From positions 1,062 through 65,061 of the forward strand of contig JAZROY010000009.1 in assembly GCA_045648925.1 (NCBI GenBank): a stretch of DNA of 64,000 bases, in the 5' to 3' direction. The notes below the pieces were generated by a model, which saw only the letters and a list, made by a program, of their open reading frames with translations, was not told the DNA's origin and did not search any database. Origin of the DNA: Candidatus Enterousia sp. (GTDB taxonomy: Bacteria; Pseudomonadota; Alphaproteobacteria; Rs-D84). The position numbers and the translations under genes were made by a program. This document shows, piece by piece, positions 2,125-37,821 of this stretch (position 1 is the first letter of the stretch; every line of letters begins with the position of its first letter).

Positions 2125-2200
2125 TCGGGCATAGTTCAGTCGGTAGAACAACGGACTGTTAATCCGTATGTCACTGGTTCGAGTCCAGTTGCCCGAGCCA
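2125..2200 (+). tRNA. tRNA-Asn(GTT)
   Basis: 76-nt cloverleaf: acceptor TCGGGCA/TGCCCGA, anticodon arm ACGGA-CTGTTAA-TCCGT, GGTTCGAGTCC T-arm, encoded CCA. Confidence 0.97.
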
Positions 2201-2202
2201 AG
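2151..2202 (+). repeat. attL of element A (3' part of tRNA-Asn)
   Basis: Identical to 22475-22526. Confidence 0.95.
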
Positions 2203-3470: not shown

Positions 3471-4205
3471 ATGAATCGCGACAATATAAGATTACCTGAA
3501 TTACGCTCTATATCATACACATTGCGGGACGCCTGTGAGCATTTAGCTTTTGGTCAAAAAACACTTAGGGAACAAGACCCAAAACCTGGCGAAATCGCAA
3601 TGCTGTGTGAGTTTTGGAAACGCACCAATCAATTTGATAGATATTTGTTAGAACCAGGGCATAACAGATATGACAAGGACGTACAAAGAGCTAGCAATGC
3701 GTTATATACCCTATTAAAAAATGGCACAATCATAGCAACATACAATGGACAAATCATACAACCAGAGACATGGCAAAACGAACTTAATCCTCTCGACATG
3801 TTAACCAATACCAATCCTTATCAAAATATAAAAATTGATGCAAAACAATTAGATATGGTGGCTCCCGTTAAACAATATACTGTTACACTCAAAAACAATG
3901 GGGGCCTTTATATTAATGACGGTGACACCGACACTAAAATATCTCAAACATACCCAGGTCACAAGAATTATGAATGGTTGAAGTTTTATTTTGAGCACCC
4001 AAAGTGTAAAATATCTAAACAAATTGTAATTAAACGTTTTAACAATACTGAATACAAATACGAAGAAGACGATAAAATTTCCCAGTGCGTATTCGCCGCA
4101 TTCAGCAAGAAAGCACCGTTAATGCATTGTTGTTTTCCTATTTGTGGTACAAAAGAGGTTTGTTGCACGCCCACATTTACAAGTACAGACATATTTATGT
4201 CTTGA
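3471..4205 (+). CDS. Hypothetical protein
   Basis: 244-aa ORF with no recognisable motif, followed by a terminator. Confidence 0.6.
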   Translation: MNRDNIRLPELRSISYTLRDACEHLAFGQKTLREQDPKPGEIAMLCEFWKRTNQFDRYLLEPGHNRYDKDVQRASNALYTLLKNGTIIATYNGQIIQPETWQNELNPLDMLTNTNPYQNIKIDAKQLDMVAPVKQYTVTLKNNGGLYINDGDTDTKISQTYPGHKNYEWLKFYFEHPKCKISKQIVIKRFNNTEYKYEEDDKISQCVFAAFSKKAPLMHCCFPICGTKEVCCTPTFTSTDIFMS

Positions 4206-4232
4206 TTAAGAATAATAACTATTAAACCACTC

Positions 4233-4258
4233 AGCGGTTGCATTTAAGCCGCTTTTTT
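4233..4258 (+). terminator. Intrinsic terminator
   Basis: AGCGGTT...AGCCGCT stem followed by T-run. Confidence 0.65.
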
Positions 4259-4362
4259 ATTGTAAAAAATAGCACTTTATTAACAAAAACTATTTTTCCC
4301 ACATAAACAAAATTCATCGCTATACTCCGAATGTAATCAAACAGAATCGAAAGGTATAAACG

Positions 4363-4572
4363 ATGATGGAAATAAATTTAAACAATCATTTAATGGACCA
4401 AAAAACCGCGGCATCCTATTTGGGTACCACTGTTGGTTCATTAAATGTGTGGCGAGCAACAGGGAAACATAAAATTCCATACGTTCGCTTTGGTCATTGC
4501 ATAAGATACAAAAAAGAAGATTTGGACGCTTGGATAGATGCACACACATTAAACAAGAATCCAACGGTATAA
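4363..4572 (+). CDS. Excisionase-like HTH (HTH_17/MerR-like) of element A
   Basis: LMDQKTAASYLG...LNVWR...IPYVRFGHCIRYKKEDLDAW winged-HTH pattern. Confidence 0.85.
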   Translation: MMEINLNNHLMDQKTAASYLGTTVGSLNVWRATGKHKIPYVRFGHCIRYKKEDLDAWIDAHTLNKNPTV

Positions 4573-4583
4573 AAAAATACCAA

Positions 4584-4988
4584 CGTTCTGTATTTTCGTC
4601 GTAAGAGAGCCTGGCGTTTAAAACCGGGTGAGCCGCTTACAGCCACTGGGTACAGAACGATAAAGCACTTACAGGGGATTTCGTGAGGTGCAGGCAGGTT
4701 TGTGAGCAAGGATGCCTCGAAAGGTTTATCAAGAAACCAAAAGCCTTGCAGTTGATTATTCGGCTTGAAGAAGCACACTGAAACGAAGTAAGCGTGAAAA
4801 CCGCTGAAGCGTGTTGATGACGAATAGACTTAGGTAGGCGTGAGCCGCAAAAAGACGCAAGTCCTGACACTATGCACGCCCTTGATGGAACCTATTGGCT
4901 GGAATTCAAAAATAGGGAACAAATCTTTTTTTGGGTTCCAGTCGGTAGGGGTTACTGTATCTCCTTCTGATAGAGTATGAGTAACCCC
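4584..4988 (+). ncRNA. Candidate large structured non-coding RNA / cis element
   Basis: No credible ORF; dense nested stems (4584-92/4651-59, 4948-56/4980-88, 4827-31/4859-63) and GNRA hairpins GGC-GTGA-GCC and GAC-GCAA-GTC; visibly more GC-rich than flanks. Confidence 0.55.
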
Positions 4989-5024
4989 GCAGAACAAACT
5001 TTAACAAAACAAAAAGGATTAAAA

Positions 5025-5348
5025 ATGGCAAATTACAATCCTGATACATCTGGTTTAATATCGTTGGCAGACAGACCGAACAACGAAAGAACAACGATAG
5101 CAACACAAGGTGGTATCGCTTCTGGAAAAAAACGAGCAGAAATAAAACGAATGTCTGAGATTGTTATGGGGCTTCGTCAAGAAAGCGAAGAAGACCCTGT
5201 TGCAAAATCTATAAAGTTTTTATTTTTTGATTTGACCAATCCTCTAACATCAATACCTGATACTGTAAAAGGGTTAAAATTTATAAAAGAACTCTGTGAA
5301 GAAGACCCCTCTAATCCGCCTTGCAATAAAACAGATGATGAATTGTGA
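5025..5348 (+). CDS. Phage terminase small subunit-like protein (KGG-type N-terminal motif)
   Basis: LISLADRPNNERTTIATQGGIASGKKRAEIKRMSE resembles the phage motif NLIP..ER...EIARKGGIASG..RR; AAGGA RBS before ATG 5025. Confidence 0.55.
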   Translation: MANYNPDTSGLISLADRPNNERTTIATQGGIASGKKRAEIKRMSEIVMGLRQESEEDPVAKSIKFLFFDLTNPLTSIPDTVKGLKFIKELCEEDPSNPPCNKTDDEL

Positions 5349-5387
5349 TAGTAAAACTTTTATCGCAATACGTTAATTATTACGTTT

Positions 5388-5915
5388 CTACACAGATAAT
5401 CGTGTTAACCGAACACCTTGATACATAAAATGGTCTGCACCACGAACAACGGGGGGCAAAAAATGTTTGTCCATATCTTTATAAAGTTTTAACGCCAATT
5501 GCGATAATGTATATTTTATACCATTATATTCAACTTCACATTTCCCGATAACTGTTACCTTGATATTAGGGTCGCCAACAAATGTTAAAATATCACCATC
5601 TTTAATACCTACTCTATACATACTAAATGGTGGTTTTGTTTTTTGCGGATTGAATGCATGTTTGGCCGCGACGGCCGACATTGTATATAATTCTGTTTCG
5701 CCAACACGATATTTTTCAAGCCACAACAATGTACCATCTGCATCACTTTCTGTATCAAAAACCTTTTTATAATATGGTTTTAATCCAAACACATTTTTAT
5801 AACCATTTACAGAAAAATCGTGCATTAACGCATCATAATTATCTGGTGTGGTTTTACCTAACTTAACAAGTCCACGAACAGAAGTCGTCATAATATACAG
5901 GATGCATTTTGCCAT
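5388..5915 (-). CDS. T5orf172/GIY-YIG-like nuclease with C-terminal RAMA-like domain (copy 1)
   Basis: LYIMTT...VKLGKT N-terminus; GIKDGDILTF...EYNG..TLSQLA...GADHFMYQG..L C-terminus. Confidence 0.7.
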   Translation of the reverse strand: MAKCILYIMTTSVRGLVKLGKTTPDNYDALMHDFSVNGYKNVFGLKPYYKKVFDTESDADGTLLWLEKYRVGETELYTMSAVAAKHAFNPQKTKPPFSMYRVGIKDGDILTFVGDPNIKVTVIGKCEVEYNGIKYTLSQLALKLYKDMDKHFLPPVVRGADHFMYQGVRLTRLSV

Positions 5916-6463: not shown

Positions 6464-7060
6464 TTATAATTTTGTTAATCTGGTCCCTTTATACAAGAAA
6501 TAATTAGCCCCCTGATATCTCTTACTAGGGTTTGCCTTACCCATGTCTTCATAAAATTTCAGTGCCAGCGGTGACAGTTTATATATAACACCATTATATT
6601 CCACTTCGCGTTCACCAACGACCTTGACCTTTATGCTGTGGTCATCAACAAATGTCAATATGTCACCTTTCTTAATTCCATGTTCATACATATTAAACAA
6701 CTGCCCCTTCTTTCTGGTGGCTGCAATTTGTTTTATTTGAACAGTCTTTGGCGTTCCATCTTTTGGAAATATTACATTACCAGAGAAAGCCAACAACAGC
6801 TGCTTTGCCTTATCTGGTTCCATGGAATACAATTCACTACTCCCAAGCCGTATAAACGTGAATAAATCCTTTAACAACCCTTCAGTTTCTTCATAATTTT
6901 CAATCTCTATTGCAAAATATGGTTTTAGCCCCGATACATTTGCATAACCATTTTGTGATAAATGACGCATCCGTTCTGGATAGTTTTTGGTGTTTGCGAT
7001 ACCGATTTTTATCACTCCAGACACAGACGTTGTCATAATATAAAGAACACCTTTTGCCAT
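6464..7060 (-). CDS. T5orf172/GIY-YIG-like nuclease with RAMA-like domain (copy 2)
   Basis: MAKGVLYIMTTSVSGVIKIG; paralogue of 5388-5915. Confidence 0.72.
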   Translation of the reverse strand: MAKGVLYIMTTSVSGVIKIGIANTKNYPERMRHLSQNGYANVSGLKPYFAIEIENYEETEGLLKDLFTFIRLGSSELYSMEPDKAKQLLLAFSGNVIFPKDGTPKTVQIKQIAATRKKGQLFNMYEHGIKKGDILTFVDDHSIKVKVVGEREVEYNGVIYKLSPLALKFYEDMGKANPSKRYQGANYFLYKGTRLTKL

Positions 7061-8368: not shown

Positions 8369-9097
8369 TTATTTATCCCAATTTTGATAACTTAAAATAA
8401 ACCTGTTCAAATCTGCTTTAGTTGATTGCCACTTGGGCAGATTGGCGTTCAGAATTTGTATAAACCTTTCGTTATGCGTTCTTTCTATTAGGTGTATCAG
8501 TTCATGAACAACAACATATTCTATACAAACAATCGGTTTTTTTGCTAATTCCAGGTTAAAAAGGATAGTCTTATTTTTATGATTACAAGTTCCCCACTTA
8601 GTTTTCATTTCTTTGATTTGCCAAGTTTTTGCTTGAACATTTAACTTCTTTTGCCATGCTTCCACCAATTCTGTAAGAACAGGTTTTAATTCCTGTCGCA
8701 ACCAATCATTAAATACTTCCGATTTCTTATCGGAACTTGTATCAGGTCTTGTTTGCAATATTATTTTTGTCTTGCCTTTTAAAAACACTTTGGGCGGTTC
8801 GTTTTTGTATATTAGTTCAAGTTTATATTTTCTACCCATAAAGTATACCGCTTCGCCAGATACATATTCTCTTTTTGTTTGTCGTTCCTGTGCTTTAAAA
8901 TTCTTTTGTTGTTGTTTTATCCACGGCAATTTAACTGCAAGCATAGACCTAATTGCATTTTCATTCATATCTAATGGTGCAGAAACTCTTACCCTGCCAT
9001 CAGGGGGCAAAACCGCCAAATGCAGGTGTTTGATTGGTTTGTAAACAACCAACGCTTCAATACTGCCCAGTTGTAAATATGAACTAGAATTCACCAT
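8369..9097 (-). CDS. M48/YgjP (DUF45) metallopeptidase-like protein associated with Type I R-M
   Basis: VVVHELIHL (HExxH), KWGTC; overlaps hsdR stop. Confidence 0.88.
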   Translation of the reverse strand: MVNSSSYLQLGSIEALVVYKPIKHLHLAVLPPDGRVRVSAPLDMNENAIRSMLAVKLPWIKQQQKNFKAQERQTKREYVSGEAVYFMGRKYKLELIYKNEPPKVFLKGKTKIILQTRPDTSSDKKSEVFNDWLRQELKPVLTELVEAWQKKLNVQAKTWQIKEMKTKWGTCNHKNKTILFNLELAKKPIVCIEYVVVHELIHLIERTHNERFIQILNANLPKWQSTKADLNRFILSYQNWDK

Positions 9098-21128: not shown

Positions 21129-22313
21129 TCAGGATATCTCTGAAGTAACAAATTCCAACATCTTGTCAGCACCACGTTGGATTGAATCACGGATTGGGTC
21201 CATAGTCAAACGTGAATACACTTTGGTTGCTGCACTGGTTTTGTCACCAAGAGCCTTACCAATGATGTGCAAACTAGCACCTGTGATGGCCTGATAACTA
21301 CCAAACGTGCGTCGCAGGTCGTGGAACCGAAAATCTTCTATGCCGGCCCTTTTTAATAACGCATACCACGGACGATGCAGGTCTTCCACGTGGCCGCTTT
21401 TACTGCCGATATCGCTTGGAAAAACCCAATCACTTATTGCGTGCTTTCGCATTTCGGTCAAAATCTCCTTTGCTTGCATTATCAATGGTATTTTTTGTGG
21501 GTCTCCATTCTTTGAATCCGGAAACAAAACATAACCAAGTTCCAAATCAACATTTGACCACCGCATTGACAACATATTCTGGCGACGTTGACCAATGAAC
21601 AATGACAATAAGACATAATTCTTAAATATCACATTTGGTTCTTCTGCCAATGCAGCAAACAACCGTTGGATTTCATCGGGCAACAAAAAACGTTCACGGG
21701 ATTTTTCCCGAAACATTTTAATACCGACAACAGGATTTCCACTGTGTTCAGGATATCCCCATTCAATGGCACGATTATACATATGCTTTAATAAACCAAT
21801 AGCCCGGTTAGCAGTGTATAAACTTATTCTATCTTTTAATTCAACGTGTAAACGTTCCACATCCACCTTGGTAACACTCATCATTTTACGGTTGTGCAAC
21901 GGTGCAAGATTGTTCCGGAACATCGTTTCATCTTTGGCCTGTGTCTTTGGACGGGTATGAACCACAACGTGTCTTGGATAATACACATCATAAAAAAACT
22001 GTCTCAGGGTCATATCCCGCAACGCCTCATTGCGTTCCTGGTTTGGGTCTATCCCTTGTTCAGCACGTTCCCGCAATGTATGAGCCTTTATTTTCGCTTC
22101 CGCCAATTTCATAATTTTTGCGGAACCAATTTTGGTCTTTACACCACGGCCACGAAAATACATTTGCATAAAGTATGTTTTTGCACCACCATATGATGCG
22201 ATAAGACACAACCCATCATTGGAATCTGTGTCATAATACACTTTTTGACCCTCGGCCGGCAAAGGCAGCCCGTCGATGGTTTTTTGCGTAAATTTTATGC
22301 GTTCTGTTTTCAT
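21129..22313 (-). CDS. int: Tyrosine integrase of element A (P4-like, arm-binding N-domain)
   Basis: Arm-binding N-terminus, IGQRRQN, RFHDLRRT, LGD (His replaced by Asp), TKVY; adjacent to att. Confidence 0.95.
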   Translation of the reverse strand: MKTERIKFTQKTIDGLPLPAEGQKVYYDTDSNDGLCLIASYGGAKTYFMQMYFRGRGVKTKIGSAKIMKLAEAKIKAHTLRERAEQGIDPNQERNEALRDMTLRQFFYDVYYPRHVVVHTRPKTQAKDETMFRNNLAPLHNRKMMSVTKVDVERLHVELKDRISLYTANRAIGLLKHMYNRAIEWGYPEHSGNPVVGIKMFREKSRERFLLPDEIQRLFAALAEEPNVIFKNYVLLSLFIGQRRQNMLSMRWSNVDLELGYVLFPDSKNGDPQKIPLIMQAKEILTEMRKHAISDWVFPSDIGSKSGHVEDLHRPWYALLKRAGIEDFRFHDLRRTFGSYQAITGASLHIIGKALGDKTSAATKVYSRLTMDPIRDSIQRGADKMLEFVTSEIS

Positions 22314-22474: not shown

Positions 22475-22526
22475 ACGGACTGTTAATCCGTATGTCACTG
22501 GTTCGAGTCCAGTTGCCCGAGCCAAG
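22475..22526 (+). repeat. attR of element A / attL of element B (duplicate 3' two-thirds of tRNA-Asn)
   Basis: Exact 52-bp copy of 2151-2202; lacks D-arm and 5' acceptor strand. Confidence 0.95.
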
Positions 22527-22533
22527 GAATTCC

Positions 22534-22567
22534 GCCGCAAACCCCGCAGGTTTGCGGCATTTTCTTT
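22534..22567 (+). terminator. Intrinsic terminator after the duplicated tRNA 3' end
   Basis: GCCGCAAACC-ccgca-GGTTTGCGGC followed by ATTTTCTTT. Confidence 0.8.
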
Positions 22568-22810
22568 ACTTAACACTTCTATGTTTCACACACCACGGTA
22601 CATCAAAAATCATCATGAAACAACCTTCTGGCTACACAATAGCTACACAGAATACGCACTATTAAGATCAATCTTGATATCTATTTTGATATCTATATGA
22701 TATCATACCACAAAGCCGCAACACACCGGAAATCTAACATTTTTTGCACTTTTTACTGGACAAGTGGAAAAATTTACGGCTTACTACGACGGCATTAAAA
22801 AGGATCGTCT

Positions 22811-23272
22811 ATGAAATACAAACATTTTGATGATATTGCGCCTAACCATCGCACAGATTTTGTTATGCTATACTTTGCCGCATGTCGTTCTTTGCGCGAA
22901 TTGGAATCGGCCGTACGCCGCACGCAAGATGGTGCATTAACCAATCGCCAGGCGTGGTTACTCCGCCGGTTGATGTACAAATGTGTCCAAATGGCCGCAA
23001 GCCATAAATCCGACCAGCGCAAATTCGAAATTGCAACAATATCTGGAACTAAATCTGGCGCCAAGGCCCTTCTGGTTACATTACCCAGCGCAATAACCGA
23101 TGCGGATATTGGTCAAATGCTGGCCACGGCCATCCAAAACGATGCTAAGCGTATCTTCTTTATAACCCCTGTTCGGCCTAATATTGCCCAACAACGCTCG
23201 ATACAATGGATGAATGATCATACAGACATTAAAGTTATTGTTCTGATCCCATCGCAAAAAATAATCAATTAA
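22811..23272 (+). CDS. Hypothetical protein; C-half resembles the fold after the active site of the 7090-8016 nuclease
   Basis: IGQMLATA..NDAKRIFFI...SIQWMNDHTD aligns by eye with LGKLITYA...ADIVIWV...AIEWLNAHTD. Confidence 0.55.
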   Translation: MKYKHFDDIAPNHRTDFVMLYFAACRSLRELESAVRRTQDGALTNRQAWLLRRLMYKCVQMAASHKSDQRKFEIATISGTKSGAKALLVTLPSAITDADIGQMLATAIQNDAKRIFFITPVRPNIAQQRSIQWMNDHTDIKVIVLIPSQKIIN

Positions 23273-23277
23273 ATAGA

Positions 23278-23943
23278 TTACTCGCTTTCGCCCAACATGC
23301 GGTTTTTGCGTTCGGTCAAAATTTCGCCTTTGTATTTAAAGAAATCAGGTCCACGATATTGTTTCCAATTGGTCGCAAAATGTTCTTTCATGATCTTTCT
23401 AGCCAATTCAGACAACGAATAATCCGTACCGTTGAACGATACCTTCTTTTTATGCGTGGAATCGTTTACTGTGCATTTCAAAACCGTGCCATTTTTCAAT
23501 GTACGCGCGAATTCCAATGTCGCCCCAGGCTTGATACCAACCGCGGCAAAATCATATTGCTTTTTGCCTTTCTTATCTGATGTTGTTTGGATATCTTCAT
23601 CTTTCACCACACCATCTTCACCAAACATGGTATTGTCGGTTTTTATCTCTTCGCCTGTGAACCCTTTTGCAAGCACTTCTAACAAAGCCACCGCGTCTTC
23701 TGGGGCAACCCTAAAGAATTCACGATTTGATCTTACGCGGCTGCCGGCAAAGATTCTGTGTGCATAGGCCTCATTTTCTTCATAATTATCCACTTTTACG
23801 GCGAAATGGCATCTGAACGGCAATGGAACGCCTGTTTTATCAAGTTGCTTCATGCGTTGTTCAACCGTCTTATCTGTGCGCCCAATTTTAATGTAACCAG
23901 GCATCGCATCATTGGTCAAAATATAAATAATTCCACGCGCCAT
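23278..23943 (-). CDS. T5orf172/GIY-YIG-like nuclease with RAMA-like domain (copy 3)
   Basis: GIIYILTNDAMPGYIKIGRT, REFF motif; GIKPGATLEF...FNG..YSLSELA...GPDFFKYKG. Confidence 0.8.
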   Translation of the reverse strand: MARGIIYILTNDAMPGYIKIGRTDKTVEQRMKQLDKTGVPLPFRCHFAVKVDNYEENEAYAHRIFAGSRVRSNREFFRVAPEDAVALLEVLAKGFTGEEIKTDNTMFGEDGVVKDEDIQTTSDKKGKKQYDFAAVGIKPGATLEFARTLKNGTVLKCTVNDSTHKKKVSFNGTDYSLSELARKIMKEHFATNWKQYRGPDFFKYKGEILTERKNRMLGESE

Positions 23944-24041
23944 AATAAAAACTCCTATGTTATCATAAGAATTATAGCATAAATTTAACCCAAATACAAT
24001 TTTTCATAAATTACATATTATAAACAATGTGAATAACAGAG

Positions 24042-24968
24042 CTATCCCGCTTGTTCATTGGATATTTTTTCTTCTGCTACTGTCTTATCCTCTATTACCT
24101 GTTCTTCTGGCAAGACAGTATCATACTCATTATTTTCAAAAGGAATATCTACATCATATTCAAGTTTATAACCGTGTTCTCTTGCTAACAATCTAATAAA
24201 ACTATCCATATTAAAAAAGTAAAACCTCCGGTCAGTTTTCTTGTTAAACTCAACCAAAAGTTGTTTGTTAGGACGCCCCTTACCAGATTTATCCCACCAA
24301 TCAAATTTTTTTTCATTGGTTACAAATATAATATCTGTTTTATCCGCCTTAGCCTTGGCCAATAATTCAGACCATATAATAAAATCTCCAGATTTATTCT
24401 GTTTCTTTTGACTATCGGTAATTCCTGGAGGAATATCATATTTGAGTCTTTTCTCAAATTCATTTTCATAAAATTCGGAATTTTCTAATTCACGACCAAC
24501 ACAATCATCATAAAAAATTTCTTCTATTGTTTCTGAAATTTTATCAAAATCAACTTCTTGTGCTTTATAAGCTTCTCTCATAGCTTCCACAGCCTTTTGT
24601 AAAGCTGTTTTAGCAGTAATAACCCAATCACTTAAAAAATGTGTTTTATTTATATCTTGTTGTAATGCGTTTATGGTACTTGTAACCCCACCAAGTTTTG
24701 ACGAATAAATAGATTGAGCCCTTTGTATAACCTTATCTTTGTTTTTATAAAATTCTTCTGCTGTATGATACGGCACAAACAACCTGTTTTTGATTGTATC
24801 TTTTGTTAATAATCCTTTGATATCTTGTAAAATTTTTGGTGAATAACTATACAAACCCAATAAAGCATTTGTATCAAAAGCCAAAACCGCATGTTTTAAC
24901 ATACGTTTTATCTCTTCTATATCATACTCCTGATGAACATAAACCGCATTCTTCATATTATTGCCCAT
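24042..24968 (-). CDS. PIN-like domain protein (PIN_8/DUF4935 type)
   Basis: AFDTNALL, EEF, GDFIIWSEL, FVTNEKKFDWW acidic PIN pattern. Confidence 0.8.
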   Translation of the reverse strand: MGNNMKNAVYVHQEYDIEEIKRMLKHAVLAFDTNALLGLYSYSPKILQDIKGLLTKDTIKNRLFVPYHTAEEFYKNKDKVIQRAQSIYSSKLGGVTSTINALQQDINKTHFLSDWVITAKTALQKAVEAMREAYKAQEVDFDKISETIEEIFYDDCVGRELENSEFYENEFEKRLKYDIPPGITDSQKKQNKSGDFIIWSELLAKAKADKTDIIFVTNEKKFDWWDKSGKGRPNKQLLVEFNKKTDRRFYFFNMDSFIRLLAREHGYKLEYDVDIPFENNEYDTVLPEEQVIEDKTVAEEKISNEQAG

Positions 24969-25242
24969 AAGTTTCTAATATACGTTTTACCCACACATCG
25001 TCCGCTTTTGTATTTCTCCATGCTGCAGGCATTGCTAATCTAGAAACAAACAATCTATCATTTCTATCTATGCACAAAGCTAATCTATCACGGATAGCTG
25101 TTGCTGGTAATGCTGTTACAATTATCCAACAAGATTCTGTTATTTTACCCCAAGTACCATATGACTTTATCGTATTATACAACAATTCATAATTCTTACC
25201 AGGAGCCATTAAATCATAAGAGATAATATAACATTTATTCAT
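24958..25242 (-). CDS. Small Cas2/VapD-like ferredoxin-fold protein
   Basis: YIISYDL N-terminal strand, 94 aa; overlaps the PIN gene start. Confidence 0.65.
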   Translation of the reverse strand: MNKCYIISYDLMAPGKNYELLYNTIKSYGTWGKITESCWIIVTALPATAIRDRLALCIDRNDRLFVSRLAMPAAWRNTKADDVWVKRILETYGQ

Positions 25243-25313
25243 GCGTGACCTCTATCATCAATGACAGTATATTATAGTATTCTGAAAAATCAAACGGTAA
25301 AAATTTAATATGT

Positions 25314-25652
25314 TTACTTTCTTACTAAATTGGTCACAGAAGTATAATAAGCGTCTTCGCCACGGATGCGTCTGACAACGTAATCTACATCAAAGTACTG
25401 GTATGTGCCGTCTTTTTCATTGTATTTGGTTACAAGTTTAGCAGAACATGCACGACGTTGCGGTGTTACATTGGTGAATACTTCCATTTCCACAACTTCC
25501 TCAAACCCAACGATGTCTTTCTTGTAACTTTCTTTGGCTATATCTGTTAATAATTTTTTAACAGAACTATCCCAACATTCTGGTGCCGGTTCAGAACACC
25601 CCACCAGCGCAACCGCCAACAACGCAAACCCGAAAATACGTGATACTTTCAT
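25314..25652 (-). CDS. Lipoprotein
   Basis: Signal peptide with lipobox LVGC. Confidence 0.75.
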   Translation of the reverse strand: MKVSRIFGFALLAVALVGCSEPAPECWDSSVKKLLTDIAKESYKKDIVGFEEVVEMEVFTNVTPQRRACSAKLVTKYNEKDGTYQYFDVDYVVRRIRGEDAYYTSVTNLVRK

Positions 25653-25656
25653 TTCG

Positions 25657-28600
25657 TTATCCCTTTATTCCTTTTACAATATCCATAAGGTGTTCATATG
25701 TATCAACACGACCATATTTCACATCATCACCACTTATCGCCTTAAAATGTTTTTCGGCACATTTTTTCTTTGCCTCTTCAATCGGTTTAAGATTCAACGT
25801 TTCCATTGTTCCCTTGGTTTCAGCAACGAAATAAATATGTTTTACAGTGCCTTCTTTAAATGCAATGGCCCAGTCTGGGTTATACCTCCCCACAGGCGTA
25901 TTTATATAAAAACCACGTGGCAATTTAGCATAAACACACACGTCTTCCTGGCGTTCTAATTCTGCGGCCATCTTCTTTTCAATTTCAGAATCCGCATCGA
26001 CGTAGTTATATATATGATGATTTGGTGTTTCGACTGATTTATCTGCCAAAATTTGTTTACCAGGTTCAGTAAATATATCAATATCAAAACAATCGTCTAT
26101 CTTATTGTACGCCACGTGTTCGATGATGGTTGTTGCTTTTTCATTGTTTATCAAGCCGATCGCCTTGGTTATAAAATCTTGCGGGTTGGCTTTGAATTGC
26201 TCAAAAGTTTCTTTGCGTATCCCACACAATATGTTTGCAACACACTTTCTGGTCAATTGTGTACCTTCAGCTATTTTACCAATCAAGTCATACTTCAGAT
26301 CAACCTCGGCCGTTTTTACAACAGTTCTTCTGGCCGTTTGTTCGCCGTCTATAAATCCGTTTTCTGTAATTTCTTTGATTGAGCCACCGGTAACCATGAC
26401 CGTTACTGGCGTAATGTGTAAATTGTTATTCAAACTGTCAATTGCCTTCTGTTCCAATTCTTTGGACGCAAAATCAACCGTATATGCAGATTTTTTGTTG
26501 ATTCTGTTCCACAATTCTTGGAATTCTTGCTTTGCAAAGTTCTTTTTATTTATGGCGATATTGACGCGTGTTCTGTTACGATTTTCAATATCGATCGGCT
26601 TGTACACAGACTCCGCTATCCTGATGACTTCATCTGCTGGGAACCCTTCTGGCATAACCAGCGCACCGGTGGCTTTCGCGGTATAAAAATCTTGCGTTAA
26701 ATTGCCATTATCATCAATGTAATTTTTCCGAATGAAGTGATTGTAGATGCGTCTAGATTCTTCTTCGGTCACTGGATGCATTTCACCTGTTTCTAATCTA
26801 ATTGCCTGTTTGAACAACTGCGGGGTTATAATACGCGGACGATTCTTCAATTCTTCGTTATATTCAGATTGCAATCCTTTTGCAAAGGCTTCATAACTTT
26901 CAGATGCAACAACGGTCAAAACATTTATTTTGTGAATACCTTCACCCAAAACAGAATAATCCATACGATCGCCATTTTGGTTGACGCACAAACGCATACC
27001 GCGGCCCAATTCTTGACGTCTTGATACATCGTTGGTGCTTTGCTTCAATGTACAAATTTGGAACACATTCTGATTATCCCATCCTTCACGCAATGCAGAA
27101 TGCGAAAATATGAATCGAACCGGTTCTTCACGTGACAACAGGCGTTCTTTATCCTTCATAATCAAATCATATGCGGCAATATCACCCTCTTTGCTTGCTG
27201 ATGTTTCAGAACGACCGAGTTTACTGTCTTGGAATTTGCCTTTTTTATCAATAGAAAAATACCCAGCGTGCGATTTATGCGCGTTGGTTCCTTTTAAGAA
27301 TTCTTCGTATTCTGGATTTAACCCCAATTGTGACAACCGATCTTCTACCGCAGCAACATATTCTTGTTCAAACATCTGGGCATAAACACCACCTTGATCA
27401 TCAGTTGTACGGTATTTGGCAACTTCGTCAATAAAGAACAAAGATAACACTTTGATACCACGATCAAACAACCTTTCTTCCTGTTCCAGGTGTGCGTTGA
27501 TAGTTTCGCGAATTTGAATACGACGAATTTGTTCTTCGTTCATATTGCCGATCCCATCACCAACATGCAATACAGTGCCGTTGTTAAAATGCACAGAATC
27601 ATCGCGGGCATCAATATCTGTTATAACCCAACGATCTTTGTATTCTTCCAATTTATTAGATCTATCATATAAATTATCACCATACTCAAAGTTTAATGTT
27701 CTTTTTGTGATTTGGGTCGCATTTTGATAATCTATTTCCATGGTAACCGTTGGATTTTTATTTGGGAACACATTTATCTTTGATACATAAATATAACCAT
27801 TTGTTGCCGTATCACCCAAAACAGATATGCCACGAACAGCGATCTTTTTCACCAACTTTCTATTATATGCATCCAGCGCATCCAAACGATAAACCATATA
27901 GTGTGGATCGCGATGTGTTGCCGAATAACGCAATATAAACAATGGATTAAAACTTTGCATCATTCTTGTAACAACTGGACCACCCATCGATTGTGGTTCA
28001 TCCAAAATCAATATCGGATGCGTTGCTGCTAAAACATCGATAGGACGACGGGAACGGAACGTGTCTAATTTCATATAAATGCGGCGTGCATCTTCACCAC
28101 GTGATGCAAAAGCCTGCATATTTATAATCATTACATGGATGTTTGAATCCGTTGCAAAGCCTTCAATATCATTAGGATGTGCAGAATTATAAATAAAGAA
28201 TCGAATTGCCTTGCCGTATTGGTCTTTGAAATGTTCCGCGGTTGATTGAAATGATTTATAAACACCTTCACGAATTGCGACAGATGGGACAATTACAATA
28301 AATTTTGACCATCCGTACCGTTTGTTCAATTCATACATTGTTTTGGTATATGTGTAGGTTTTCCCTGTACCAGTTTCCATTTCCACAGACAAATTCAATA
28401 TCCCATTTATTGGATCTTCATTTGGCTTAATTCCGGCTTTGATTTGTTGTTTGTTAATATTTTCCAACAAAACATCGTTATTTATTGCCAGCGCAGGATT
28501 CGCATAAGCATCAAAATGAATCAAATCATTTGTATTATCATTGGATTGTCCAGGATCCAGAATGTATGATTGCGCACGTTGTTTCGGTTGTCCAACAAAC

Positions 28601-28668
28601 ACATCGCAAATGGCATTGGTTGCATCTGTCTGGAAATCTTGGCTTTTGTATTTTATCTTCATGACCAT
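25657..28668 (-). CDS. res: Type III restriction enzyme Res subunit
   Basis: METGTGKT, LDEPQ, LREGWD, QELGRGMR; C-terminal YNPDWAI...AETK nuclease. Confidence 0.95.
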   Translation of the reverse strand: MVMKIKYKSQDFQTDATNAICDVFVGQPKQRAQSYILDPGQSNDNTNDLIHFDAYANPALAINNDVLLENINKQQIKAGIKPNEDPINGILNLSVEMETGTGKTYTYTKTMYELNKRYGWSKFIVIVPSVAIREGVYKSFQSTAEHFKDQYGKAIRFFIYNSAHPNDIEGFATDSNIHVMIINMQAFASRGEDARRIYMKLDTFRSRRPIDVLAATHPILILDEPQSMGGPVVTRMMQSFNPLFILRYSATHRDPHYMVYRLDALDAYNRKLVKKIAVRGISVLGDTATNGYIYVSKINVFPNKNPTVTMEIDYQNATQITKRTLNFEYGDNLYDRSNKLEEYKDRWVITDIDARDDSVHFNNGTVLHVGDGIGNMNEEQIRRIQIRETINAHLEQEERLFDRGIKVLSLFFIDEVAKYRTTDDQGGVYAQMFEQEYVAAVEDRLSQLGLNPEYEEFLKGTNAHKSHAGYFSIDKKGKFQDSKLGRSETSASKEGDIAAYDLIMKDKERLLSREEPVRFIFSHSALREGWDNQNVFQICTLKQSTNDVSRRQELGRGMRLCVNQNGDRMDYSVLGEGIHKINVLTVVASESYEAFAKGLQSEYNEELKNRPRIITPQLFKQAIRLETGEMHPVTEEESRRIYNHFIRKNYIDDNGNLTQDFYTAKATGALVMPEGFPADEVIRIAESVYKPIDIENRNRTRVNIAINKKNFAKQEFQELWNRINKKSAYTVDFASKELEQKAIDSLNNNLHITPVTVMVTGGSIKEITENGFIDGEQTARRTVVKTAEVDLKYDLIGKIAEGTQLTRKCVANILCGIRKETFEQFKANPQDFITKAIGLINNEKATTIIEHVAYNKIDDCFDIDIFTEPGKQILADKSVETPNHHIYNYVDADSEIEKKMAAELERQEDVCVYAKLPRGFYINTPVGRYNPDWAIAFKEGTVKHIYFVAETKGTMETLNLKPIEEAKKKCAEKHFKAISGDDVKYGRVDTYEHLMDIVKGIKG

Positions 28669-28686
28669 TGTGCATCACCCCTTGGT

Positions 28687-30546
28687 TTACAATACTTTTA
28701 CACAATCATCACGACCGGTAATGTTTTTAAATATCTCAGACACGTTCACTCTATCTTTGGCATCGGCAAAAGAACTGTCGCGGAACACAGCAATTGTCGG
28801 TTTTAAATTGGCGATTTCATAAACCAACTTTTCTGATATTTCCGGTTCAAAACATGCGACCAAATAATCACCACCGTTCACAACATAGTATTTTTTGCCA
28901 TCGCAAATTTTAGTTTCTATCGGCATATCCAGTGGCAATCCGCAATCAACCATTACCCCAAACAACAAATCCATATCCGAACGATCGGATTTAATATTGT
29001 CAACGGCATCCAACAAAGTTTTTTGGGTTGTATCCGATGGTTTGTAATAAACATCTTTCATATTGGTTGAATCAATACGCAAAACACGGAATCCGATATC
29101 TATATCTTTATCTGGATTTTCTGATTTTATTTTTTCACCGGCACGACGGATGCGTTCCTTGCCGATTTCACAGATATTTAAATATTCTGAATCTTCACCA
29201 CACTTTTCGGGCAATTGAACCATGATAAATCTTCTTTTGCCTCCATCTTCTGCGTTTAACTGCATCACTGAATGAGCAGTTGTTGCGGACCCAGAAAAGA
29301 AATCCAAAACTATTGAATCTTTATCTGTTGCAAGTTGCAGCAAAATACCCAGCAAAGGGACAGGCTTCGGAAAATCAAATTCATTGATACCCAAGTCGCT
29401 TAAAATTGAAGTGCCTAAATTATTCACATATTTAGAATTCATTAAATCATTGGTGGTCATTATCAAATTAGGGTCTTTATCAACCAAAACATTTGTTCCA
29501 ACTTGGAATTCTTTGTCTATATAGTTTCTAACCCTCAAAGTTGAAGCCGTTTCCACAACTATTCCCAACTCAATGGCTTTTTGCATACGGTCTTTAGTCC
29601 ATAGCCAGCGTCTTCTGTTACCCCTTGAATCCACAGGTTTATAAATCTTTCCATTAAATTCAACATCGTAATCACCACCCGCAGAATATCCTTGGGTTGC
29701 ACTGGCCAATATCGGACTCGTATCTCCTTCTATGTAAGAACCTTTATCATCATGCTTCAGATTGGTTAAATCTCTCTGAATAACACGATGAAAATCATAT
29801 TGTTTATTCTTTGCATAAACCACGATATAATCATTCGTTTTAGAAATATATTTTTCCTGAGCTGGTCTTTGTGCAGATGTCAAACGAGGTACTAAAGCCA
29901 CAAAGTTTTTTTCCCCGAAAACCTCATCCAAGATATTCTTCAAATTAACAACTTCATGGTCATCAATTGATATAAAGATTACCCCATCATCAGACAAAAA
30001 ATCACGGGCCAACTTTAAACGCGGGTACATCATACTGCACCAATCGGAATGGAACCGACCGTTGGTTTCGGTGTTCACGAACAAACGATTACCCTCGGTA
30101 TCACATGCCCCCTTTTTCTCAAGATATTCTTCACAACCAACCGCAAATTCATCACAATACACAAAATCATTGCCTGTATTGTATGGTGGATCGATGTAAA
30201 TCATTTTTACTTTGCCCAGATATGATTCCTGTAACAATTTCAGCGCATCCAGGTTGTCACCTTCGATATACAAATTCTTGGTTGTATCCCAATTCTTGGA
30301 ATCTTCCACAACCGGACGCAGGGTTTTACGAATTGGACGGTTGGCCTCTGCCTTGGCCGCGTTTTTACCAACCCACGTAAATTCATATTTCTCAATTGTA
30401 TCAGATGCTACATCATCCCTGAGAGCCGCCTTTAACTCTTCAAAGTCAATTTTACCCTCTCTGGTCACCGCACCAGGGCAAAATTCTTTGATCTTTTCCA
30501 CTGCAACAGATAATGGATTCTGTTCCATTTTTAATTTTTCAGTCAT
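28687..30546 (-). CDS. mod: Type III DNA methyltransferase Mod
   Basis: YIDPPYNTG, FPKP, LDFFSGSATT. Confidence 0.95.
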   Translation of the reverse strand: MTEKLKMEQNPLSVAVEKIKEFCPGAVTREGKIDFEELKAALRDDVASDTIEKYEFTWVGKNAAKAEANRPIRKTLRPVVEDSKNWDTTKNLYIEGDNLDALKLLQESYLGKVKMIYIDPPYNTGNDFVYCDEFAVGCEEYLEKKGACDTEGNRLFVNTETNGRFHSDWCSMMYPRLKLARDFLSDDGVIFISIDDHEVVNLKNILDEVFGEKNFVALVPRLTSAQRPAQEKYISKTNDYIVVYAKNKQYDFHRVIQRDLTNLKHDDKGSYIEGDTSPILASATQGYSAGGDYDVEFNGKIYKPVDSRGNRRRWLWTKDRMQKAIELGIVVETASTLRVRNYIDKEFQVGTNVLVDKDPNLIMTTNDLMNSKYVNNLGTSILSDLGINEFDFPKPVPLLGILLQLATDKDSIVLDFFSGSATTAHSVMQLNAEDGGKRRFIMVQLPEKCGEDSEYLNICEIGKERIRRAGEKIKSENPDKDIDIGFRVLRIDSTNMKDVYYKPSDTTQKTLLDAVDNIKSDRSDMDLLFGVMVDCGLPLDMPIETKICDGKKYYVVNGGDYLVACFEPEISEKLVYEIANLKPTIAVFRDSSFADAKDRVNVSEIFKNITGRDDCVKVL

Positions 30547-32024
30547 TATTTCCGTCCTTTACTTGTAACATATTTTTGATTTGGATGATTAGGGACCGCA
30601 GGATGTAACCACTGTATAAGTCCGCGTTGTATCAATGGTTTCAGTATATTTTTCACAACATATTGCCTATCACGCAAGTTCAAAACCGACATGATCTCTT
30701 GTGCAGATTTCGGTTCCGTACAAAAATCCAAAATAATTTGAACTTGTGGAGTAACTTGTGGAGTAGCTTGTGGGGTAACTTGTGGAGTAACTTGATCACC
30801 AACTTGATTACTTGAGCCCCCAAGTTTGGCTTCATCTATTTGATTATTCTTAAAAAATGGTATCGGCAAGGTTACTCTGAAGGTTGGCAAGTCCTGGATA
30901 ATCGGATCATTTCCAGCATAAATGCGTGCATAATGGAATAATTTTGTAAATCCAGAACCTAATTCTTCAACAAGCCCTAACTCTCTAAAAAATCTTGCAA
31001 TATTCGGGTTTTTGGGGTGTGACGTCATGTTTTTCACAGTAATAAACCCATTTATGTATGGCTTATTACTGTTTTCTGTATAAATTTTGTCTTCCTCTAT
31101 AATGATCCTTGTAGGCTCCGCCCCAGAATATTCCTTGTGCACAATCGCATTAGCGATAATTTCACGAAAGATAATCGTTCTTAGGTCTATTCTTTCATCT
31201 TTTTCAAGATAAAATGGTGATGGCAAATGTTTTTCTATAAATGCCATCGCTTTATCATAAGTTTCGATAAGATTTGTCGATAAAACCTCGCGATCATCAT
31301 ACCTGTCTTTGTTTACGACACGTTTCACCAAATCAACTTTGTATGCAGGCACTGCCGAATGAATTGTTTCATCTTTACCAAACAGTAAAATACAAGCCAA
31401 AGTGAAACCGGTATCGCCCGTGTTCAAATCTTTCTGGTACAGACCCATATTTTGCAAAATTTGCATATTATCCATTGTCAACCAAGGATGACTGCCATTA
31501 CTACGTATTCTAACAATATTACGGACACGTTCAAACAAGTCTGCACGCAAATCATCCATTGTAACGGCAGCAAATATCTTATTTTCTGAATACGATGAAC
31601 TTTTTTGATTATATAACTGATGTACTAAATTCTGATTATCGGTAATATTCATATCGGCATCATGATTACGAACATAAATATAGCTTTTATGCCGATGTAC
31701 TTGCGAAGATTCTGGCACAAAAACATGTAACACTGTTTTTTTATCGATCGGATATGGCTCTAATTGAGAATAGCAAGGAGGGTTTATAACCTGACTATTA
31801 TTGATAGCCGTAGAAAAAGCTTGTTGCATATTGAATACACAATCAGGATCCACACCAATAATTTCACCATTATCTTTGACCCCCAACAAAATATCGCCCC
31901 CCTTAGTATTTAAAAAAGCACATACCGTTTCGTACACATTATTAGGAATATTGTTTGTTGCCAATTTAAATTCTGTTGTCAAACCTTCACCGCCTGCGAT
32001 AATAGATTTTATTTTATCTGTCAT
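30546..32024 (-). CDS. AlbA_2 (Schlafen-like) + HATPase-like + C-terminal HTH protein
   Basis: GEGLTTEFK...ETVCAFLNTKGGDILLGV; REIIANAIVHKEY; NPNIARFF...VEELGSGF; HPNQKY end. Confidence 0.85.
   Translation of the reverse strand: MTDKIKSIIAGGEGLTTEFKLATNNIPNNVYETVCAFLNTKGGDILLGVKDNGEIIGVDPDCVFNMQQAFSTAINNSQVINPPCYSQLEPYPIDKKTVLHVFVPESSQVHRHKSYIYVRNHDADMNITDNQNLVHQLYNQKSSSYSENKIFAAVTMDDLRADLFERVRNIVRIRSNGSHPWLTMDNMQILQNMGLYQKDLNTGDTGFTLACILLFGKDETIHSAVPAYKVDLVKRVVNKDRYDDREVLSTNLIETYDKAMAFIEKHLPSPFYLEKDERIDLRTIIFREIIANAIVHKEYSGAEPTRIIIEEDKIYTENSNKPYINGFITVKNMTSHPKNPNIARFFRELGLVEELGSGFTKLFHYARIYAGNDPIIQDLPTFRVTLPIPFFKNNQIDEAKLGGSSNQVGDQVTPQVTPQATPQVTPQVQIILDFCTEPKSAQEIMSVLNLRDRQYVVKNILKPLIQRGLIQWLHPAVPNHPNQKYVTSKGRK
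30742..30801 (-). repeat. In-frame 12-bp tandem repeat (QVTP linker)
   Basis: ACTTGTGGAGTA-like units x4 plus one degenerate unit. Confidence 0.85.
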
Positions 32025-32677
32025 GACAGCTCCTTTACTTTCGCTTCTATTTTACGAATTTGATCTTTTATTTCAAACTTTTTATTTAATTGCACCGTTG
32101 TGCGTAATTTTTGTTCCAAATCAGATATTTGTTTTTCTAATTTTGTGCGTTCTATATCACGATCAACCGCATTTTGCAGACCGATACCATCGGTTTTTAC
32201 GCGACCGCCAGATATTTGTTCTATGAAGCCATTGTATATTTTATCCAACGTGGTGCCATGCAATTCAAGATTCAGCCCATCCAACCAATCAGTTGTCCAC
32301 CGTTTGTCTATTGTGCTTGAATCTTTAGAATTTATCGTTTTATGGGCGATACTGGCACACTGTTTATCACCATATTCCAAAATAAATAGAACATATCCAG
32401 CGCAAATTGTTTTATCCAGTGCATCCAATAATTTTTCGTTTATCTTTTTATGCTTTAATTTGATTTTCAAAACCAGTATTTCTGGGAATTCGGTTCCAGC
32501 ATCAACATTCAAAGTGTCGCGCGCCAATCTATTTGATATCGTTATTTTTTCAACATCATCAACCAAAGCCTGTTTCAATGCCCCAGTCAGTGTATTCTGG
32601 GCATAAAAGCGTTCTTTTGCTAAAAATTTACCGATTTCGGTCGTTTTTGGCCAATTCATTTCACCACCACAAAGCAA
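32021..32677 (-). CDS. DUF4391 protein
   Basis: WP..T...K.L.KE.FY start and QLNKKFEI end; usual position between helicase and mod. Confidence 0.85.
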   Translation of the reverse strand: MLCGGEMNWPKTTEIGKFLAKERFYAQNTLTGALKQALVDDVEKITISNRLARDTLNVDAGTEFPEILVLKIKLKHKKINEKLLDALDKTICAGYVLFILEYGDKQCASIAHKTINSKDSSTIDKRWTTDWLDGLNLELHGTTLDKIYNGFIEQISGGRVKTDGIGLQNAVDRDIERTKLEKQISDLEQKLRTTVQLNKKFEIKDQIRKIEAKVKELS

Positions 32678-35600: not shown

Positions 35601-35949
35601 GTGTCATTTGGTTACGTAACCGCAATTCAAAATCAGTACCATACAAACTTTGTTCGCGTTCTTGACGGGGAATGTAAAATTCGCGTTGTTCTTTATGATT
35701 GTTTTCACTTAAAAATGTCGGCGATGTAAATATAAAACGCAATTCATCTATATTTTCCAACTGTTTCTTCAAATCTTGATATGCATAAATAGAAAAACAT
35801 GCCGCAGCAATTGATAGTTTGGAATGCTTTTTTATTTCGGTTTTCAGATCATCCGCTAACCTGTTGTTTATATTATCAAATAATTGTATTTTATTATTGA
35901 ACAAAGCCATATACGAACCCTTTTGGGGTATAGTAGGACAAATGTTCAA
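32656..35949 (-). CDS. SNF2-family helicase with degenerate N-terminal PLD-like domain
   Basis: LADSVGLGKT, IDESHNFRN, LSATP, SEGQNLQ, QRFGRIDR; no intact HxK in the N-domain. Confidence 0.9.
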   Translation of the reverse strand: MNICPTIPQKGSYMALFNNKIQLFDNINNRLADDLKTEIKKHSKLSIAAACFSIYAYQDLKKQLENIDELRFIFTSPTFLSENNHKEQREFYIPRQEREQSLYGTDFELRLRNQMTQKAISKECADWIRAKVQFKSNKTNRFIQPFINIGDKYTYIGMNGFTTTDLGTEKGNALAMYVNRLENENSKQYLNLFNEIWNDPEQMEDVKQRILEHIETIYAENAPEYIYMVTLYNIFKEFLNDISDDVLPNEATGFKQSQIWNKLFAFQKDAARDIIHKLEKYNGCILADSVGLGKTFTALAVIKYYECRNKSVLVLCPKKLQDNWATFKENYLNNPVAKDRLRYDVLYHTDLSRDHGMSGNIDLSKINWGAYDLLVIDESHNFRNGGKTTVDEDGIESYNRYNQLMEKVLKPGVKTKVLMLSATPVNNRFVDLKYQLELAYEGIEDEINEKLNTKKSLSVIFNNAQRAFNDWSKLPEEKRTTEELLNRLDQDFFEVLDSVTIARSRKHIEKSYDTSEIGKFPTRLEPDNRYPAITLDDSLGINYADLFGKLEHLYLSVYSPSKFIFPSKLPKYESKYGKKAGKGISLTGREMGTRKLMAINLMKRLESSWFSFNETAKSIADKINNAVSAIEKFKKSHTAKGFKLDIFDIDDEDDQIDTTYGEYSIDFNDMDYESWLRELQNDQAIFNDIIELFSHMTPELDNKLNELKSIIKNKIEHPLNANNKKVLIFTAWADTAQYLYDNISKYVSKEFGLNTGVVTGDANTSDSTIKRNGDKGKFDFNELLTMFSPVSKDRDVLNNMPSEDIDILIGTDCISEGQNLQDCDYMVNFDIHWNPVRIVQRFGRIDRIGSQNDKIQMVNFWPERELDKYIDLTNRVQNRMTGVAITSTGINVIGKDQDLQYRKAQLEKIKTETPDLEDMNTGVNIMDLGLNEFRLEVVDYHKSHPEIEHAAKGMHAVVAATSDMPSGVIFVLRNVNNGEKIDKQNRLHPFYMVYLAESGEVVCDHLSAKKMLDIMGRLCKGQISPNKVLCKSFNTETKDGFDMKHYSDMLNKSIQTIINVKEESDVNSIFTYGGSTLGVNNIQGLDDFELICFVVVK

Positions 35950-35967
35950 AAAAATCTACAAATAATC

Positions 35968-37467: not shown

Positions 37468-37559
37468 GGCTTTTTCTCCAAAATTTTTATCTTTCTATTC
37501 ACACCATGCATGAAAAAATTTCATTTGTAAAGGCCTTATTTTCTGCGGATTTTAGCGTT

Positions 37560-37821
37560 GATACATGATGATACACCATGATACATTTAACCCCAAAAAT
37601 GAGAAATTTTTGTATTTAAACATCTATCGAAACATTTAAATGCGCTTTGATACAAATTGATATAAATTGGCACACACGACCACTTTTCAAGCAAATTACT
37701 TCTGAAATTCCCCCAAAAATGAAAAAATGCCAAAATGTGTCCGCACCAGGTCCGCACCCTAGGTCCGCACTTAACATATTGAAAATACGATTCTTTTTTC
37801 TGCAGGGTGCGGACCGCGGAC
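37560..37821. repeat. Iteron/arm-like repeat cluster
   Basis: GATACA(T/C) x3 at 10-bp period (37560, 37570, 37580); GTCCGCAC x3 (37739, 37750, 37763) and inverted GTGCGGAC at 37807. Confidence 0.75.

Follow-up and report, generated by a model that had tools for sequence, protein, structure and literature searches.

A large structured RNA downstream of alpA in tRNA-integrated islands of gut Alphaproteobacteria, and a second RNA class in the same slot

The DNA analysed here, referred to as the window, is a stretch of 64,000 nucleotides (nt) from a Candidatus Enterousia sp. contig (GenBank assembly GCA_045648925.1, JAZROY010000009.1). Close to its left end lies a tRNA-Asn gene, followed on the same strand by a gene of variable identity, by a small alpA/vis-like gene for a helix-turn-helix protein, and by a gene for a protein of 107 amino acids (aa), orf107, here called the MANYNP gene after the first residues of its product. 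Between the alpA stop codon and the next start codon is a gap, 4573-5024, which an earlier note on this DNA had proposed to hold a new large structured non-coding RNA. The comparative analysis described here bears out that proposal: we are close to certain that positions 4584-4972 (+) are a real, new, large structured RNA, termed class A, which adjoins the xis/alpA-like gene of a mobile element linked to a tRNA and has no counterpart in Rfam, and in sister elements an unrelated RNA, class B, occupies the same slot. The right limit of the gap was set at ATG 5025 because the downstream protein family begins uniformly at MANYNP; the gene had been listed as a 123-aa open reading frame (ORF) from 4977, and 23 of 23 homologues align from MANYNPDTSGL.

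The structured RNA and its fold

The gap has a GC content of 44%, against 33-35% in its flanks, within a window that is AT-rich (GC about 35%), and its + strand folds at -135.6 kcal/mol, with a z-score of -3.96 against dinucleotide shuffles (-2.07 for the - strand). In seven distinct class A sequences the curated model comprises 89 pairs in 15 helices, including one H-type pseudoknot, with 98.4% of the cells paired. Compensatory double changes occur at 21 of the 89 pairs, against 0-3 in controls with the 3' partners shifted by 1-3 columns, and none of 500 column shuffles was as good as the model; RNAalifold, run independently on eight class A sequences, returned 100 pairs, of which 22 are compensatory. 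The conserved block is also more similar between distant loci (80-82% nucleotide identity) than alpA (62-67%) or the downstream ORF (55-65%).

Paired cells in the model include 119 G-U against 5 A-C combinations; therefore the folded strand is the + strand, since the minus strand could not form the structure. G-U pairs, many of them invariant, make up about 19% of the paired cells, and this wobble content is RNA-like, as the earlier note had argued from G-U pairs and GNRA loops. The gap region is non-coding: both strands contain short ORFs (46-94 aa), and in the alignment several single-base insertions or deletions among class A homologues break every frame, so that no ORF is conserved and the impression that the gap lacked a plausible one holds. 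Class A thus combines compensatory changes above controls, strand-specific G-U pairs and the lack of a conserved ORF, the generic marks of a structured non-coding RNA.

The elements of the fold are listed in Table 1. Three U-G pairs of the 5' domain are invariant; the H-type pseudoknot, which came from an exhaustive stem search, and the hairpin in its third loop are paired in all cells. Both strands of the helix at 4837/4875 change together, from GGCGUG/CACGCC to GGCACG/CGUGCC, and the loop of the hairpin that it surrounds is always GNRA in class A members (GCAA, GAAA or GUAA). The tip of the long 3' hairpin is AU-rich and variable. Two segments, UUUUCGUC and UGAUGACGAAUAGAC, are invariant and single-stranded; GACGAA (4819-4824) is complementary over 6 bp to UUCGUC (4595-4600) and could pair with it, both being invariant and so without a covariation signal.

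Table 1. Features of the window and positions of class B RNAs in other loci
Feature	Position	Strand	Basis
tRNA-Asn(GTT), integration target	2125-2200	+	ARAGORN and Rfam
Left attachment (att) copy, 52 bp, 3' part of tRNA-Asn	2151-2202	+	perfect direct repeat
244-aa gene, hypervariable slot upstream of alpA	3471-4205	+	no Pfam or PHROG match
alpA/vis-like HTH_17 gene, 69 aa	4363-4572	+	PF12728, E 2.7e-08; phrog_66, excisionase/regulator
Class A structured RNA, conserved block of about 390 nt	4584-4972	+	alignment, RNAalifold, curated structure
5' domain	4585-4658	+	closing helix 4585-4595/4648-4658, 2 compensatory pairs; among the best supported
Enclosed helix of 5' domain	4602-4605/4636-4639	+	3 compensatory pairs; among the best supported
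Enclosed hairpin of 5' domain	4609-4614/4624-4629	+	1 compensatory pair; among the best supported
Hairpin 4665-4670/4686-4691	4665-4691	+	1 compensatory pair, other pairs invariant; among the best supported
H-type pseudoknot, helices 4692-4696/4713-4717 and 4706-4711/4744-4749	4692-4749	+	1 and 3 compensatory pairs; both helices among the best supported
Hairpin in third loop of pseudoknot	4723-4727/4734-4738	+	3 compensatory pairs; among the best supported
Helix 4774-4779/4808-4813 with inner hairpin 4791-4794/4802-4805	4774-4813	+	weaker: 83% and 96% paired, 1 compensatory pair each
Invariant single-stranded block UGAUGACGAAUAGAC	4815-4829	+	identical in all class A members
Helix 4837-4842/4875-4880 around GNRA-capped hairpin 4854-4863	4837-4880	+	2 compensatory pairs; 4837-4842/4875-4880 among the best supported
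Long 3' hairpin 4891-4903/4937-4949 with 4885-4888/4951-4954	4885-4954	+	17 pairs, 3 compensatory, 99% paired; 4891-4903/4937-4949 among the best supported
A-rich spacer with ribosome-binding site of next gene	4973-5024	+	sequence and length not conserved
MANYNP gene, 107 aa, family 'MANYNPDTSGL...GGIASGKKR'	5025-5348	+	start fixed by 23 homologues
P4-type tyrosine integrase	21129-22313	-	PF00589 (Phage_integrase) and PF13356 (Arm-DNA-bind_3)
Right att copy, island boundary	22475-22526	+	100% identical to 2151-2202
Class B loci	L001 1313-1803; L006 2496-3000; L008 1025-1517; L015 2994-3440; L022 2993-3456; L030 594-1063		

The earlier note had drawn a nearly continuous series of stems, most of which covariation confirms (CGTTCTGTA/TACAGAACG, GTAAG/CTTAC, CCTGG/CCGGG, GCACTT/AGGTGC, AGGCA/TGCCT, GGTTT/AAACC and AGCG/CGCT), together with the pairing of GGCGTG 4837 with CACGCC 4875. 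Three others (GACTT/AAGTC, TGGAACC/GGTTCCA and GGGGTTACT/AGTAACCCC) are broken in relatives and hence specific to the window, while AAGCC/GGCTT is compatible with the relatives, shows no covariation and overlaps the strongly covarying helix strand 4744-4749. A second proposed pseudoknot, TATTCG 4757 with CGAATA 4821, loses its outer pair in three of seven sequences and is otherwise invariant, so that it finds no support. The GNRA hairpin at 4854-4863 is kept in all members; the one at 4837-46 turned out to be one strand of the GGCGTG/CACGCC helix.

The note had also suggested scanning Rfam, group I models included, and testing homologues for covariation; the second gave the counts above, and the first gave no match for the block. 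With Rfam 15 at gathering thresholds, the whole window yields two tRNAs and nothing else; at E<=10, positions 4200-5400 yield nothing meaningful (no group I, ROOL, GOLLD or C4/CI), and at both thresholds neither the window nor five further loci give a relevant match. A match to RAGATH-7 scored 15.7 bits against a threshold of 111.8 and is noise, and the covariance models of ROOL and GOLLD likewise found nothing at either threshold. A loose group I-like P3/P7/P8 arrangement, as had been suggested, can be set aside: the Intron_gpI model (RF00028) has no match even at E<=10, and the block lies between two complete genes, with no exons. The block has no blastn match in phage and plasmid collections, and nhmmer profiles found no second copy in the window.

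Two RNA classes in one slot

Homologous loci were collected with the MANYNP protein as search anchor, from contigs of public assemblies and from species-representative genomes; in the latter, a scan with the single protein found nothing and an alignment-based scan found loci. The order alpA, RNA, MANYNP gene holds in 17 of the 17 loci that have alpA, which all show the arrangement of a variable gene (about 250-290 aa), alpA, a gap of 450-510 nt and the MANYNP gene; on contigs that extend far enough to the left, the variable gene is preceded, at a distance of about 100 nt, by a gene for tRNA-Asn or tRNA-Thr. Named host genomes are metagenome-assembled gut genomes of Alphaproteobacteria, several of them labelled Candidatus Enterousia, and sequencing runs of DNA that contain the window's own sequence come from bovine, sheep and other gut metagenomes.

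In blastn comparisons the gaps fall into two groups without mutual similarity: class A (the window, the near-identical L028, L002, L005, L018, L019, L020, L021 and part of L031) and class B (L001, L006, L008, L009, L010, L015, L016, L017, L022, L029 and L030). Distant members of a class are 76-82% identical. Profiles of each class in nhmmer recovered every member of their own class and none of the other, and on class B loci a covariance model built from the 5' half of class A gave nothing significant with filters off (best score 10.9 bits, E 0.06, in one locus); homology between the two classes is rejected on all three counts. The flanks tell another story: between the window (class A) and L001 (class B), the pair with the most similar flanks, AlpA is 81%, the upstream protein 50% and the downstream protein 93% identical, and the RNAs are without similarity. 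Partners in the upstream gene likewise cross the classes (L005 of class A with L006 of class B; L002 of class A with L008 of class B), so that, as far as these sequences go, the flanking genes do not track the RNA class.

Class B is about 450 nt long and occupies the alpA-to-MANYNP slot of sister elements. Its model has 102 pairs, with 97.9% paired and 33 compensatory pairs against 2-6 in slid controls, and its G-U pairs number 91 against 1 A-C; four long-range pseudoknots carry 3-5 compensatory pairs each, and three of them involve hairpin loops. It has no Rfam match. Class B is at least as ornate as class A, and no architecture is recognisably common to both. The sequences firmly indicate that a second, unrelated RNA class can replace class A in the same slot.

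Searches for further copies added little. Four DNA patterns run over the viral contigs of IMG/VR found no copy of class A or B (three patterns were empty, and two 18-mer matches of the fourth are due to chance), and relatives of AlpA in viral contigs have no such gap 3' of the gene. A pattern scan of JGI metagenomes found one near-identical copy only, with a pattern that was too strict and misses the GGCACG variants.

The island and its genes

The alpA-RNA module stands at the tRNA end of a 20.3-kb island bounded by the two 52-bp repeats, with the integrase at the far end. Its cargo includes type I restriction-modification genes, a separate N6_Mtase/Methylase_S fusion protein, a Panacea-domain (SocA-like) antitoxin, and T5orf172, DUF4268 and ASCH genes; the scanned ORFs of the island include none recognised as a capsid, terminase, relaxase or replication gene. 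The prophage setting assumed in the earlier note therefore gives way to a capsid-less integrative defence island, and nothing was found in favour of the link to packaging that it had raised. The layout reads tRNA, variable gene, alpA, RNA, small MANYNP protein, defence cargo and P4-type integrase, and a minimal relative, L005, has the variable gene, alpA, RNA, MANYNP gene, a few small cargo genes and integrase in about 6 kb. The RNA makes up about 6-10% of the minimal element and lies in the constant core of a tRNA-integrating island family, whose hosts are gut and rumen Alphaproteobacteria of the Candidatus Enterousia type.

Within the island, the segments 5471-5627 and 6541-6697 are diverged paralogues with 70% identity, the first in a 175-aa ORF (5388-5915) that has no Pfam match, and the second in the T5orf172 gene at 6464-7060. 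Directly next to the island, 22527-39700 appears to be a second, tandem island with its own P4-type integrase (38315-39610, -); its cargo includes type III-like restriction-modification, PIN_8, Schlafen/AlbA, SNF2 helicase and KAP NTPase genes and another T5orf172 gene (23278-23943). This second island is without the alpA-RNA module, and a third att copy was sought and not found. Just past the second integrase, 40130-41407 encodes a 425-aa protein with a C-terminal domain of the Tlde1/YkuD L,D-transpeptidase type, possibly a toxin.

Sister loci fill the slot 5' of alpA with at least three unrelated kinds of protein, all about 250 aa long and none with a Pfam match (3471-4205 in the window, 1-741 in L002, 198-989 in L005), and a terminator-like hairpin lies 3' of each of these genes (4233-4253 in the window). 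Downstream, the MANYNP family is small: a search of 1.84 billion representatives gave 81 clusters at E<=1e-3. The gene had been called TerS-like, a name that does not survive: Pfam gives nothing at E<=1 for the window's protein, and no TerS, terminase or informative family for any member; a profile search of the Protein Data Bank (PDB) gives nothing below E 0.05; and the AlphaFold2 model, helical and of low confidence (predicted local distance difference test 65), has no significant fold match, the best in BFVD being at E 1.3. Its only PHROG match is phrog_2412, of 'unknown function'. The MANYNP gene also occurs without alpA or the RNA, beside a serine recombinase gene or after a 92-aa ORF (L003 940-1311; L011 1490-1894), and in L022 (3501-4493) its N-terminal domain is fused to a helicase-like (UvrD_C_2/PIF1-like) C-terminus. 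A private pairing of RNA and protein is unlikely, because the protein is not class-specific.

Large, intricate and pseudoknotted RNAs are rare in bacteria, and most of those that are understood are ribozymes or essential ribonucleoprotein cores; the orphan large RNAs OLE, ROOL, GOLLD and raiA are under active study. The two classes described here add two new large RNAs with strong covariation in a very small, defined context (a few genes, from tRNA to integrase), which makes their function testable by ordinary genetics.

Expression and possible roles

In the window the RNA begins 12 nt after the alpA stop codon (4572 to 4584), and across the loci 10-25 nt after it; promoter-like sequence is found 5' of alpA in several loci, and a scan of 4573-5024 found no intrinsic terminator in or after the RNA. 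Since the space after alpA is too short for a separate promoter and a terminator is lacking, the RNA is most likely part of an alpA-to-orf107 transcript, and we regard it as probably co-transcribed with alpA. A pig-gut metatranscriptome (X27) contains a 244-nt contig that lies wholly within a class A relative (L019 3147-3381), and two independent gut metatranscriptomes (X40 and X41, one of them bovine) contain contigs of about 150 nt that run from the last 25-57 nt of alpA into the 5' part of a class B RNA (L015 2996-3128); together these hint at transcription and at read-through from alpA. Three runs labelled as RNA-Seq (X26, X35 and X36) gave long contigs with even depth over the flanks, which is DNA-like, and were not counted.

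In the explanation that we favour, firing of the alpA promoter would yield the alpA-to-orf107 transcript carrying the class A RNA, which would then function as an independent folded domain and not in the manner of a riboswitch-type leader; we infer that it is processed and acts as a discrete RNA. In the step after induction by AlpA, the class A or B RNA would set a type-specific function, such as immunity, incompatibility or self-recognition. Such a role is put first because near-identical modules carry either class A or the unrelated class B, and the swapping of unrelated RNA types in near-identical modules, itself unusual, is the pattern that determinants of immunity or incompatibility should show. 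It suggests that RNA, and not protein, carries the type-specific function in these defence islands of uncultured gut bacteria. As a whole (a new core RNA module, an alpA operon transcript and a type-specific role) the account is tentative, somewhat short of probable; the specificity or immunity role by itself is possible and on balance doubtful.

The closest architectural analogue of the alpA-RNA module is satellite phage P4, in which a leader of about 590 nt comes after vis (8764-9030) and contains the C4/CI (C4 at 8420-8507) and isrK RNAs; the RNA described here has the same position, directly downstream of a vis/alpA-type gene. As in the P4 immunity leader (vis/ORF88, CI RNA with its targets, epsilon and the alpha operon), a structured non-coding RNA of several hundred nt stands between an AlpA/Vis-type helix-turn-helix gene and small genes, in an element that uses a tRNA gene as its integration site, encodes a P4-type integrase along with defence cargo, and varies in RNA type among related elements. 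Where the C4-type RNA is a short processed product that pairs with two repeated target sites and stops transcription prematurely, classes A and B have long-range covarying pairings of 5-8 bp, which fit intramolecular pseudoknots. Unlike in P4, the fold is larger and pseudoknotted, no terminator and no primase-helicase operon follow, and the hosts are Alphaproteobacteria. The minimal satellites of the PICMI/P4-like kind (integrase, alpA, then primase) are similar in being small islands with an integrase and with alpA as induction switch, and in PICMI the genes after alpA form an early regulon (PMC10803314); here, however, a large RNA and a small protein rather than a primase follow alpA, and satellite status is putative, with no helper phage known.

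Several points weigh against this explanation. The fold, especially that of class B, is far more complex than known immunity RNAs, and a ribozyme or ribonucleoprotein scaffold fits as well or better. The C4/CI, isrK and c4-a1b1 models (RF01695, RF01394 and RF03163) found no match at E<=10 in 4200-5400, and on the P4 genome, run as a positive control, they scored 74.9, 60.8 and 44.1 bits; no CI-like repeated target sequences were identified. Three rumen metatranscriptomes hold nothing for the window's own sequence, the three contigs mentioned above are of low depth, strandless, from relatives and possibly carried-over DNA, and the RNA has neither a defined promoter nor defined processing sites or 3' end. 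Each class is represented by only 7-8 distinct sequences, and because the downstream protein served as search anchor, the constant presence of its gene beside the RNA in part reflects ascertainment.

About as likely as the specificity role is an RNA that works on its own, as a catalyst or a scaffold: a ribozyme, the core of a ribonucleoprotein, or an ornate RNA that assembles with itself like ROOL or GOLLD. The position after alpA would then merely ensure expression on induction, and classes A and B would be unrelated solutions or have different functions. Size, pseudoknots (one in class A, four covarying in class B), invariant single-stranded blocks, conservation above that of the neighbouring genes and the lack of an expression platform all suit it, as does the likeness to ROOL (RF03087) and GOLLD (RF01998), which are large, intricate, of unknown function, and carried by mobile elements or prophages with tRNA genes close by; rumen metagenomes yielded the first examples of ROOL, and a rumen or gut origin in a tRNA-linked mobile element is shared (PMC12286853). 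Class A differs from these RNAs, of about 580 and 800 nt, in being about 390 nt long and in standing in the alpA operon of an integrative island and not in a prophage. Against an RNA of this kind, no known ribozyme or ornate RNA model matches, and no catalytic motif is recognisable; moreover, a swap of non-homologous RNAs is easier to explain by specificity than by conserved catalysis.

In a more far-reaching explanation, which we consider unlikely, classes A and B would belong to a wider, so far unrecognised set of interchangeable large RNAs that do a job of proteins in primase-less minimal integrative elements. Such an RNA could, for example, be a folded pre-primer for the excised circle or specify its origin, or it could be an enzyme whose substrate is the nucleic acid of the element itself, and the class would set which elements coexist in one cell.

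Slightly less likely again is a classical cis-acting leader (an attenuator, riboswitch or antitermination target) of the MANYNP gene. The RNA does lie between two co-directional genes and has neither promoter nor terminator to itself, members of the AlpA family can act as processive antiterminators (PMC7969949, PMC9371919), and long structured leaders are known in operons of mobile elements, such as the 456-nt leader of pLS20 (PMC13401043). A riboswitch would need an expression platform, however, and neither an intrinsic terminator in 4573-5024 nor a consistent sequestering helix was found: duplex scans covering 14 loci pair the ribosome-binding region best with a different partner in each locus group examined, with nothing consistent among them, so that sequestration of the ribosome-binding site is rejected. 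The spacer between RNA and next start codon is A-rich, of variable length (50-90 nt across loci) and not conserved. A cis leader is disfavoured because there is no such platform and because the same protein gene, at 93% identity, is served by two unrelated RNAs, and elsewhere by none.

A transcript-primed replication origin, in the manner of ColE1 RNA II, would replace the primase of P4 and PICMI and make classes A and B incompatibility types; it is an attractive reading, speculative and quite improbable. Primase genes follow alpA/vis in P4 and PICMI (PMC10803314), no replication gene was recognised among the scanned island ORFs or those listed for L005, the spacer 3' of the RNA is A-rich, and interchangeable classes would fit incompatibility groups. 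ColE1 RNA II is likewise a folded RNA of several hundred nt; in its small mobile replicon it supplies the key function that no protein provides, and it determines the incompatibility type. It has no sequence or model similarity to the RNA described here; the scans revealed neither an antisense RNA I unit nor an antisense promoter or terminator that could serve a copy-control RNA, Rfam gives no RNAI match, nothing indicates that the element replicates, and the idea rests purely on analogy.

A structure of single-stranded DNA used in transfer (a single-strand origin or oriT-like site), a reading proposed for the STAXI motif (PMC2864571), would suit an orientation-specific, stem-rich sequence in a mobile element, but it is effectively excluded by the many invariant G-U pairs, the conserved GNRA loop, the several covarying pseudoknots, the lack of a relaxase or Rep gene and the occurrence of the sequence, from relatives, in metatranscriptome contigs. 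Still further from consideration, and likewise effectively excluded, is a decayed protein gene, which the earlier note had named as an alternative, or ordinary intergenic DNA with chance stems: short ORFs on both strands speak for it, and the frame-breaking changes, the conservation above that of the flanking genes and the 21 compensatory pairs against 0-3 in controls refute it.

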